From contig OZ024741.1 in assembly GCA_964016885.1 (NCBI GenBank), positions 220,100,001-220,164,000 on the forward strand: a DNA stretch of 64,000 bases, written 5' to 3'. Below are positions 11,291 to 13,600 of this stretch, in pieces. The notes under the pieces are model-generated. The model did no database searches, was not told the DNA's origin, and worked only from the letters and a program-made list of their open reading frames with translations. The stretch comes from Eledone cirrhosa. Taxonomy: Eukaryota. Each line of letters opens with the position of its first letter. Position 1 is the first letter of the stretch. The position numbers and the translations under genes were made by a program.

Positions 11291-11775
11291 AATATGGTTT
11301 TATAAATATAGTTTTCCATTTATTTAATATCATTGTATATATATATATATTCGTATATATAAATATAGTTTCCATTTATTTAATATCATTGTATATATAT
11401 ATATTCGTTTAAAATAAATTAAAATACAATTTAAATATTCACCTATCCAAATTGCTTTCACAAAAGATTGGGAATCCAAGGACTTCCAATGGAAAGATCG
11501 GCTCTTCAGAAAGCTATTTAAAATCCCATAGCAAGCAAATACACCGCTAACTCCCAGCTAGTGAAAGATCGAGTGGGCCGTTGAAAATTGACCTACACGT
11601 GAACTCGACGTCTAGTGCAAGCAGGGATATTATAGACTTGTTGTATGCCACACTACTAAAAATAGCAGCTAGGTACAACGTTTTTTTCTTTACACACAGG
11701 AGTATATACATAACATGAGATTAATATCTCCACGGAAATATATAGAGTGTCTATAATACAGTTGTTGTTCAATGG

Positions 11776-12178
11776 TGTAGTGACCTACGTTCCTAGGGCT
11801 CATAGATACATTCTCCGTGCGTTGTTTGGCTCAGTTCAGCCAATCGCCGCCAGAGTAGGAGAATGTATCTCGACACGCCCTGAGGGAAAAATTCCCGCGT
11901 CAATTCAGAAATCTCTCTCTTGCAACTTGACCATGCTTAGGTAAACACCACTTCTTCTTATGCTCCGCAAGCACAAACAATATGTAACGGTGAGATTTGC
12001 ACTTTGGCCTGTCGGCCTTCCTTGGGCCTGGCACAATGCCACATTCCTTTTATAACCTTTATATTGTTAACTATAACTATCCAATTCAACAAATATTACT
12101 TTGTGCTACAACAAATAAACATACATTCATCATAATTATCCGTGTATCTTTCTACTAAAATGGTGACTCGACGCGAGT
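11776..12178 (+). mobile_element. LTR of an LTR retrotransposon with tRNA-Trp-like PBS, inserted in array 2
   Basis: Starts TGTAGT, AATAAA near 12114, ends ACTAAA (expected ACTACA) at 12159, followed by TGGTGACTCGACGCGA resembling the complement of the tRNA-Trp 3' end (TGGTGACCCCGACGTGA). Confidence 0.65.
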
Positions 12179-12328
12179 CTTGGTAATATCTATTATTAGA
12201 AACAACAGCTAAAATTGTATTAATTAGAGATATCAGAACTATAAAATTGAGATGAGCTGAACAAGCAAATTTTAAACATTCTTTTAAAATAAATTAAAAT
12301 ACAATTTAAATATTCACCTATCCATATT

Positions 12329-12406
12329 GCTTTTACCGACGGTTTCGCTTCACAAAATATTGGGAATCCAAGGACTTCCAATGGAAAGATCGGCTCTTCA
12401 GAAAGC
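12329..12406 (-). ncRNA. Type I hammerhead ribozyme with extended loop 2
   Basis: GCUUU-CUGAAGA-GC(C)...~42 nt...(A/G)GC-GAAACC guc GGUA-AAAGC. Confidence 0.8.
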
Positions 12407-13311
12407 TATTTCCATTACATAGGATTTAAAATCCCATATCTAGCAAATACACCGCTAACTGCCAGCTAGTGAAAGATCGAGTGGGCCGTTAAAAATTGAC
12501 CTACACGTGAACTGGACGTCTAGTGCAAGCGGGGATATTATAGACTTGTTGTATGCCACACTACTAAAAATAGCAGCTAGGTACAACGTTTTTTTCTCTA
12601 CACATGGGAGAATATACATACAATTAGATTAATATATCCACAGGTACTAAGAGCCGATTTTTCCATTGGAAGTCCTTGGATTCCCAATCTTTTGTGAGGC
12701 GAAACCATCGGTAAAAGCAATTTGGATAGGTGAATATATAAATTGTATTTTAATTTATTTTAAAAGAATTTTTAAAATTTGATTATTCAGCTCATCTCAA
12801 TTTTATGGTTCTGGTATCTCTAATTAATACCATTGAACAACAACTGTATTATAGACACCCTATATATTTCCGTGGGTACTTAGTACCTGTGGAGATATTA
12901 ATCTCATTTTATGTATATTCTCCCATGTGTAGAGAAAAAAACGTTGTACCTAGCTGCTATTTTTAGTAGTGTGGCATACAACAAGTCTATAATATCTCCG
13001 CTTGCACTAGACGTCCAGTTCACGTGTAGGTCAATTTTTAACGGCCCACTCGATCTTTCACTAGCTGGCAGTTAGCGATGTATTTGCTTGCTATGGGATT
13101 TTAAATCCTATGTAATGGAAATAGCTTTCTGAAGAGCCGATCTTTCCATTGGAAGTCCTTGGATTCCGAATCTTTTGTGAAGCTAAACCGTCGGTAAAAG
13201 CAATTTGGATAGGTGAATATTTAAATTGTATTTTAATTTATTTTAAAAGAATGTTTAAACATTGCTTGTTCAGCTCATCTCAATTTTATAGTTCTGGTAT
13301 CCCTAGTTAAT

Positions 13312-13499
13312 TGTTTCTACTTATGGCACAAGGCCAGCAATGATCCAGTGTATTACTGGTACTTTATTTTATCGACCCCATAAGGATGAAAGGTAAAGTT
13401 AACCTCGGCGGGATTTGAACTCAGAATGGCAAGGGCCGTAACTCTATGCGTCAAAGCATGGCGTCCGTCCCTCTACCGATACTACCAATCCACCGCCCA
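13312..13499 (-). mobile_element. tRNA-SINE inserted in array 2 with ~17-bp TSD
   Basis: SINE motifs flanked by TGGTATCCCTAGTTAAT and TGGTATCTCTAATTAAT. Confidence 0.85.
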
Positions 13500-13600
13500 T
13501 GGTATCTCTAATTAATACCATTGAACAACAACTGTATTATAGACACCCTATATATTTCCGTGGGTACTTAGTACCTGTGGATATATTAATCTTATTTTAA

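Follow-up and report, generated by a model that had tools for sequence, protein, structure and literature searches.

A short tandem repeat bearing hammerhead ribozyme motifs, laid out in two arms that point away from each other, raises the question of what kind of element it is and by what machinery it came to lie in the genome of Eledone cirrhosa. The window we analysed is a 64,000-nucleotide stretch of contig OZ024741.1. The window copy is a decayed fossil insertion of a protein-free hammerhead repeat of ~483 nt, and it is likely that this one tandem insertion was copied into (TA)n by the RT/endonuclease of a Penelope-like element (PLE).

About 3.4 units of the 483-nt monomer lie in two divergent arms at window positions 11403-13606, and the repeat spacing from 12649 to 13132 gives the monomer length, so that both the period and the inverted layout proposed in the initial annotation hold. 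We numbered the monomer q1-q483 on the complete copy at 12829-13311 (+); the core CUGAAGA starts at q301, and cleavage is predicted after q368. The left arm, on the minus strand, consists of an outer segment (11403-11775, q1 to q424), with a 17-nt deletion in its hammerhead, and an inner segment (12218-12651, q51 to q483), between which lies a solo-LTR-like insertion of 438 nt (11776-12213, +) with an imperfect 4-bp target duplication (ATGG/ATTG). This LTR-like element belongs to a dispersed family (2285 candidate places, the best 40 of which were scored), with same-strand pairs 2.3-2.6 kb apart. The outer end of the arm, at q424, lies in (TA)n, some 38 nt before q462, where copies usually end, and is not one of the site A ends defined below. 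The right arm, on the plus strand, begins at the inversion junction with a 5'-truncated unit (12649-12828, q304 to q483) that keeps the 3' two-thirds of the hammerhead, and continues through the complete monomer to site A (q462) and the hairpin that follows it (13290-13311, +), the commonest 3' end of genomic copies. It is then interrupted by a SINE (13308-13499, strand unassigned), with a ~17-bp duplication of monomer sequence (13295-13311 and 13500-13516) and many further copies within the window, and closes with a 'tail' of ~111 nt (13500-13606, +, q463 to q90) ending at site B.

The array stops at q90 in a (TA)30 target microsatellite (13602-13661, strand unassigned), as had been read from the right end, and the LTR and the SINE, taken from the start to be later arrivals, do both interrupt monomer arms and carry target duplications. 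The window segments show 3-5% divergence from the majority sequence of 31 close relatives, and three segments have in common a rare variant at q176, found in 1 of 13 relatives. Given this divergence and the shared rare variants, we take the array to be one old insertion from one template lineage.

Four hammerhead copies with different kinds of damage had been described, and all four were found in that state. The copy near 11455 (-) in the left arm has lost GGC-GAAA-stem III to the 17-nt deletion; the copy at 12329-12406 (-), the sole one in the window with an intact core, is predicted to cleave after 12334 and has a stem II weakened by one C.A mismatch (GCC/AGC); the copy at 12649 (+) is without the 5' strand of stem I and the CUG; and in the copy at 13124-13201 (+) GAAA has become UAAA. 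This last comprises stem I (13124-13128/13197-13201), core (13129-13135), extended stem II (13136-13183) and stem III (13187-13195), all on the plus strand, as are a purine tract 5' of stem I (13114-13121), with 8-nt complementarity to 13143-13150 and a pseudoknot predicted there, and a U tract (13172-13176) that is predicted as a candidate third strand. The spacing of 42 nt between GCC and GGC given in the initial annotation is correct, but the whole motif as written there occurs in no single window copy. An Rfam search of window positions 4000-20000 had no hammerhead among the 150 of 184 matches listed, and at gathering score there were 0 matches in four loci. By itself the intact-core copy folds no better than shuffled sequences (z -0.12).

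Several other elements share the window. Array 1 (6660-8265) lies in a PLE RT remnant (5980-6660) and contains a minimal hammerhead near 7963 (+), the loop 3 of which is a 4-nt palindrome. As claimed, array 1 is unrelated to the 483-nt monomer: their local alignment scored z -1.2 and -0.6 relative to 200 shuffles. In roughly 17 of 124 insertions of the 483-nt family, a copy of the array 1 family is found no more than about 1.5 kb away, consistent with shared (TA)n targeting. PLE ends flank the array on both sides. At 11090-11400 (+) is the 3' end of one PLE family, resembling the 3' regions of L228, L229, L233 and L240, with a hammerhead of mutated GAAA and a ~50-bp local duplication beside the array's left end. 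At 13662-13985 and 14810-16908 (-) is an ORF-bearing PLE end in two arms with ends ~85 nt apart and a broken RT/endonuclease ORF upstream. It carries a hammerhead of its own at 13845 (-), with an extended stem II of 36 nt and a palindromic stem III, and a second copy of that hammerhead is at 19392 (-). Farther away are a GC-richer stretch (~9100-10350, +) that resembles a decayed transposase coding region by eye, a minimal type I hammerhead motif at 32216 (-; 7-bp stem I, 15-nt stem II) and long minisatellites at 34339-38513 (95-bp units), 57768-61213 (49-bp) and 61727-63011 (52-bp). At least six more hammerhead families with palindromic stem III occur in flanks (L047, L054, L058, L205 and others), and the E. 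cirrhosa genome is rich in such elements.

In the 3.0 Gb searched, the monomer had 2351 candidate places, of which the best 40 were scored. A 20-mer from the motif had 132 exact matches versus 0 for the reversed control, a pattern allowing one further stem III base 1728 versus 8, and a pattern with free positions 2383 versus 16. Forty distinct natural units, taken from cut to cut, formed seven clusters, six of them 67-84% identical among themselves; the seventh, family Y, is 43-49% identical to these and homologous to them (z 12-16), and an eighth cluster, family V, has 75% identity to Y. The superfamily thus comprises at least eight sequence clusters, with 43-84% identity between clusters and thousands of motif matches. 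Units measure 476-491 nt in all clusters, the search having been restricted to 470-495 nt, have a low GC content of 34-40%, and carry a type I hammerhead core with three stems each (192 distinct motif copies parsed).

Head-to-tail arrays span 0.2-8.84 units genome-wide and at most 1.83 units per arm in the window-type lineage. The array of 8.84 units, L271 of the young family Y, has 0-1 differences between units and an identical inverted arm (0 of 1200 positions differing), its nearest other locus is 0.5% away, and no ORF in it exceeds 81 codons (longest stop-free frames 62-81 aa). Divergence at young Y loci is 0.16% within arms, 0.43% between arms and 2.3% between loci; units and arms of young insertions are near-identical, with locus-private variants. 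A 3.9-kb periodic match at C2:144.36 Mb was rejected as a donor, as it proved to be a duplicated LINE fragment; at L091-L093 (C2:144.35-144.37 Mb) a tandem duplication of ~3.9 kb holds a LINE ORF1/endonuclease fragment and a 105-nt monomer piece. The 2780-bp pair at C1:58.19 Mb reflects duplication of a locus, with (TA)n separating the copies. The 483-nt family was not found described in a literature scope that leaves aside Lunse et al. 2017, the PMC7229834 supplement with mussel hammerhead drawings and the bioRxiv 10.64898/2026.07.22.740005 supplement, any of which could affect novelty, and three stem III motifs are absent from the accessible supplement text of PMC8557442, where line breaks could conceal matches.

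The 42-nt stretch had been read as a large insert in loop 2, but it is an extended, covarying stem II: a proximal helix of 3 bp in the window lineage, and of 6-7 bp in Z, Y and V, leads to a pyrimidine/U-rich internal loop and, beyond the loop, to a hairpin of 10-11 bp. Over 44 copies across families, from loci chosen by stem III patterns, covariation scored 0.333 versus 0.177+-0.011 in shuffles (reached by 0 of 500; slid controls at most 0.205), a score that counts sequences rather than events and includes eight Y rows off by one in the distal helix. In these copies 83% of cells pair and both sides have changed in 117 cells, with double changes in stems I, II and III; within the window-type lineage alone the covariation is modest (reached by 19 of 500 shuffles). 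The extension explains why Rfam models and short-spacer descriptors miss the motif, and comparable 'HHR_half_core' cases, of 35-50 nt, are described in PMC8557442.

Stem III, for which intramolecular closure had been claimed, could close with 3-4 bp, but the matter is not clear, as it is a palindrome or near-palindrome in every family. The window's near-palindrome gives a duplex of -11.3 kcal/mol and an unstable isolated hairpin; in the larger families the palindrome is perfect, and a double change preserves it. Among the first 100 matches of a mismatch-tolerant pattern, 71 have CCGATCGG, 26 have CTGATCAG and 3 have other variants. Cleavage could therefore proceed as a dimer as well as a monomer, and the PLE and newt hammerheads of PMC4209133 and PMC6765202, likewise with palindromic stem III, are dimeric. 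In 44 of 44 copies the monomer fold that would allow hammerhead activity is less stable than the predicted minimum, by 2.1-13.6 kcal/mol (5.7 kcal/mol in the best window copy), and one large subfamily has a U.U or U.C mismatch at pair 10.1-11.1 and a C.A mismatch in stem I. When folded as circles, seven of seven representatives had z between -2.1 and -5.8.

In six of six groups the purines preceding stem I form a tract complementary to the 5' side of the stem II internal loop, over 5-8 consecutive pairs and at near-equal register from the core, and the opposite side of the loop is a run of 4-5 U in six groups. Between the window/Z and Y/V lineages tract and loop show double changes at two positions; the match is perfect over 8 bp in V, and in the window subfamily another change brings it to 8 bp. 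On its 3' side stem I has a variable flank that is mostly unpaired with the tract. Tested against composition-preserving shuffles, the complementarity gave P 0.0002-0.003 in the window-type subfamily and 0.03-0.88 in the other 10 of 12 sequences; A/U composition accounts for much of the match, and the same tract pairing could belong to an inactive hairpin enclosing the core, which is present in one predicted fold. On structural prediction we somewhat favour pairing of the tract with the internal loop as a pseudoknot, while a full U.A-U triple helix at this contact, with which predicted runs of 3-5 would be compatible, is the more doubtful proposal, at perhaps one chance in three. We found no U.A-U triplex in a natural hammerhead in the literature, and the conserved extension of stem II may provide a new, as yet predicted, hammerhead tertiary contact.

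The positions at which insertions of this family begin and end could carry the imprint of the enzyme that made them. A census of 150 loci gave 124 distinct insertions, 90 one-armed and 34 two-armed, whose ends we assigned to site A (q450-466), site B (q77-95) or neither. One-armed insertions end at A in 66 cases, at B in 12 and elsewhere in 12 (4 of these segmental duplicates). Two-armed insertions are divergent in 33 of 34 cases, and 24 of the 34 combine one A with one B end, with one divergent A+A, no B+B and eight with at least one other end, an excess of A+B with p 8e-7 versus 50:50 independent drawing. A looser alignment of 180 loci, in which some ends are over-extended, gave 26 of 39 A+B; sister families gave 18 of 24 (one duplicated locus counted twice), and family V 4 of 4. 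The tail, ~103-112 nt long, is on one end only, 158 of 167 A/B ends enter (TA)3 or longer, and the 5' ends are variable and scattered over the unit. Behind site A the GTTCTGG arm of the hairpin is invariant in eight of eight family representatives, which makes this hairpin a candidate docking element for a PLE protein.

The PLE protein studied in PMC11167929 makes cuts in both strands of AT-rich DNA and starts reverse transcription at two internal RNA sites, the spacing of which is the genomic tail, and PMC8557442 describes inverted 5'-truncated copies, one-sided tails of 30-40 bp and a (TA)n bias. Two fixed ends ~110 nt apart are this Penelope-like 'tail' signature at about three times the published length, and we infer that each broken DNA end was primed at a different site. 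The same two-end pattern recurs in ORF-bearing PLE families of the E. cirrhosa genome, where the spacing is ~85 and ~125 nt; long tails are therefore characteristic of the local PLEs. A young ORF-bearing PLE (L151-L180, for example L152 and L161; 95-99% protein identity) has 3' ends ~125 nt apart, and a motif scan found no hammerhead in it. The PLE-type integration route that the initial annotation had supposed for this array is thus borne out by the A+B ends, the divergent arms and the (TA)n target. We found no report of two-site ends in retrozymes in the literature; the machinery that moves animal retrozymes has so far been argued from co-occurrence and pLTR similarity, and here the PLE two-site signature is read from the anatomy of the insertions themselves, in families up to ~55% diverged.

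A mechanism that would give this anatomy begins with transcription of a tandem copy, from which the hammerhead, as a monomer or dimer and with the predicted pseudoknot/triplex contact in place of the usual loop 1-loop 2 contact, would cut unit-length RNA, which would then likely be closed into a circle. The conserved hairpin behind site A would be the docking point of a PLE protein, probably dimeric, that nicks both strands of (TA)n; of the two DNA ends, one would prime cDNA synthesis internally at site A and the other at site B. Synthesis would proceed back through the cleavage site and stop at variable points, and 5'-to-5' joining of the cDNAs would yield divergent arms.

The cleavage site is crossed once by 144 arms and twice by 22 (the lone three-fold case is an alignment across an LTR insert), and the template must therefore have been a circle or an uncleaved multimer. 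The near-identical units and arms of young insertions and the stable circular folds favour a circle, and by analogy with the systems of PMC7229834 and PMC7761336 we lean towards this template. It was not unreasonable to consider instead a non-autonomous PLE parasite copied through uncleaved linear multimers, in which the hammerhead would be a weak or protein-gated relic and no circle would form. The free crossing of the cleavage site agrees with such a template, as does the lack of a pile-up of 5' ends there (8 of 187 within q364-374 versus 4.3 expected, in a biased sample) and the position of the active fold above the minimum-energy fold. In PMC11167929, moreover, unprocessed RNA was the dominant substrate and hammerhead cleavage was dispensable for insertion in vitro, and eight of nine Xenopus retrozyme dimers were uncleaved in bioRxiv 2026.07.22.740005. 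However, core, stems and palindrome have been kept with compensatory changes across lineages 43-84% identical, and near-identical units and arms with locus-private variants are as expected from one repeatedly read template, so that we give the linear multimer a minority, if substantial, share of the probability.

It is improbable, in our estimate, that the unit is the pLTR of an unsampled autonomous PLE and the arrays its short 5'-truncated insertions, with no independent cycle. The ends, the inversion, the (TA)n target and the hammerhead with long stem II and palindromic stem III do match pLTRs of local ORF-bearing PLEs, of whose many families three were compared. But arms exceeding one unit run on into another unit, never into the 3' end of an ORF, no non-monomer flank is common to loci among the 30 compared, and the ORF-less arrays reach 8.84 identical units. 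None of the three ORF-bearing PLE families (30, 20 and 12 loci) has sequence in common with the monomer or carries such a terminal repeat, and no donor was found among them, the best end-motif resemblance, to one family, having z 2.4 versus shuffles. These results uphold the claim of an independent tandem hammerhead family.

PLE-like ORF pieces, which we provisionally class as 'Hydra-like PLE' from their motifs (RT core; Cys cluster followed by a C-terminal GIY-YIG) and for whose fragments Pfam gave no family, occur near monomer copies at 32 loci, and are common there because the same (TA)n tracts accumulate such elements. Such an ORF lies upstream of an arm in 17 rows, with a TA run intervening in all but one locus. 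At the exception, L009 (1931-2600, -), a PLE RT fragment abuts the 5' end of the monomer with no TA run in between, as the pLTR explanation would have it, possibly through a template switch or later deletion, but the PLE family concerned has a pLTR and hammerhead of its own, unrelated to the monomer in shuffle tests.

Satellite-like amplification at the DNA level (unequal exchange, slippage or fold-back), with inversion after insertion, could call on the existence of tandem arrays and on one 3.9-kb segmental tandem duplication that repeats a monomer fragment four times, but copies are dispersed over many contigs with fixed 3' and variable 5' ends, A/B asymmetry between arms and a (TA)n target, and this very remote explanation is largely refuted by the end statistics.

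Insertion of a protein-free repeat by PLE machinery is accordingly the reading we retain. Its most complete form, in which an active superfamily of ~483-nt circular RNAs has a hammerhead clamped by an ENE-like U.A-U triplex and a PLE RT dimer uses each DNA end to prime on the circle at a separate site, the two sites being ~110 nt apart, is a speculative combination that we would not expect to hold in full. Were it true, the insertions would be a direct genomic footprint of animal retrozyme mobilisation, and the triplex-clamped ribozyme would be an architecture that we have not found in print. The very young arrays offer near-identical natural templates on which cleavage, circularisation and priming can be tested.

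By every testable feature the array is an animal non-LTR retrozyme. Like those of PMC7229834 and bioRxiv 10.64898/2026.07.22.740005, these are ORF-less, low-GC tandem repeats with one type I hammerhead per unit, found as monomers to multimers, with a self-paired predicted circle and with PLEs in the same genome; the 483-nt family has neither protein coding nor LTR/PBS/PPT organisation. Its unit, thought at first to be somewhat larger than those of metazoan retrozymes, does exceed the 170-400 nt of Cervera and de la Pena 2020 (PMC7229834) but lies within the 51-972 bp of bioRxiv 2026.07.22.740005, where retrozymes are argued to be PLE-derived. Unlike the short helix II and canonical loop-loop contacts described for animal retrozymes, stem II here has a structured extension of 42-46 nt, and the inverted arms and two fixed ends of its genomic insertions are not part of the descriptions that we consulted; PMC7761336 states that such repeats show no motif indicating the mobilising element.

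With the pLTRs of endonuclease-positive PLEs (PMC4209133, PMC8557442, PMC11167929) the family shares a short palindromic helix III and an enlarged helix II, and with PLE insertions (PMC8557442, PMC11167929) partial tandems, an inverted 5'-truncated copy, a one-sided tail and a (TA)n or AT-rich target. It differs from these PLEs in having no ORF and a tail of ~103-112 nt versus their reported 30-40 bp, and from the local PLEs in lacking sequence similarity to the three pLTRs compared.

Pseudoknotted hammerheads (Perreault et al. 2011, PMC3088659; PMC11300833) likewise use Watson-Crick pairing, here predicted, to set stems I and II side by side, and are reported to tolerate weak bases of stem II, including U.U at 10.1-11.1, a position mismatched in one large subfamily here. 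In our case, however, the tract is predicted to pair with one strand of an internal loop whose other strand carries a U tract, while the solved pseudoknotted structure, as presented in PMC11300833, is connected differently and contains an A-minor triplex in the minor groove. As in the ENE triple helices of PMC13541005, which occur in transposon RNAs, a U-rich internal loop between helices and an A-rich third strand would permit U.A-U triples; unlike in the ENEs described there, the A tract is internal, short (3-4 A) and without a 3' tail, and the predicted contact lies within a ribozyme. Set against these systems, what the family adds is new in degree, namely a direct PLE end signature with a ~110-nt tail and a conserved, extended stem II with a predicted pseudoknot or triplex.
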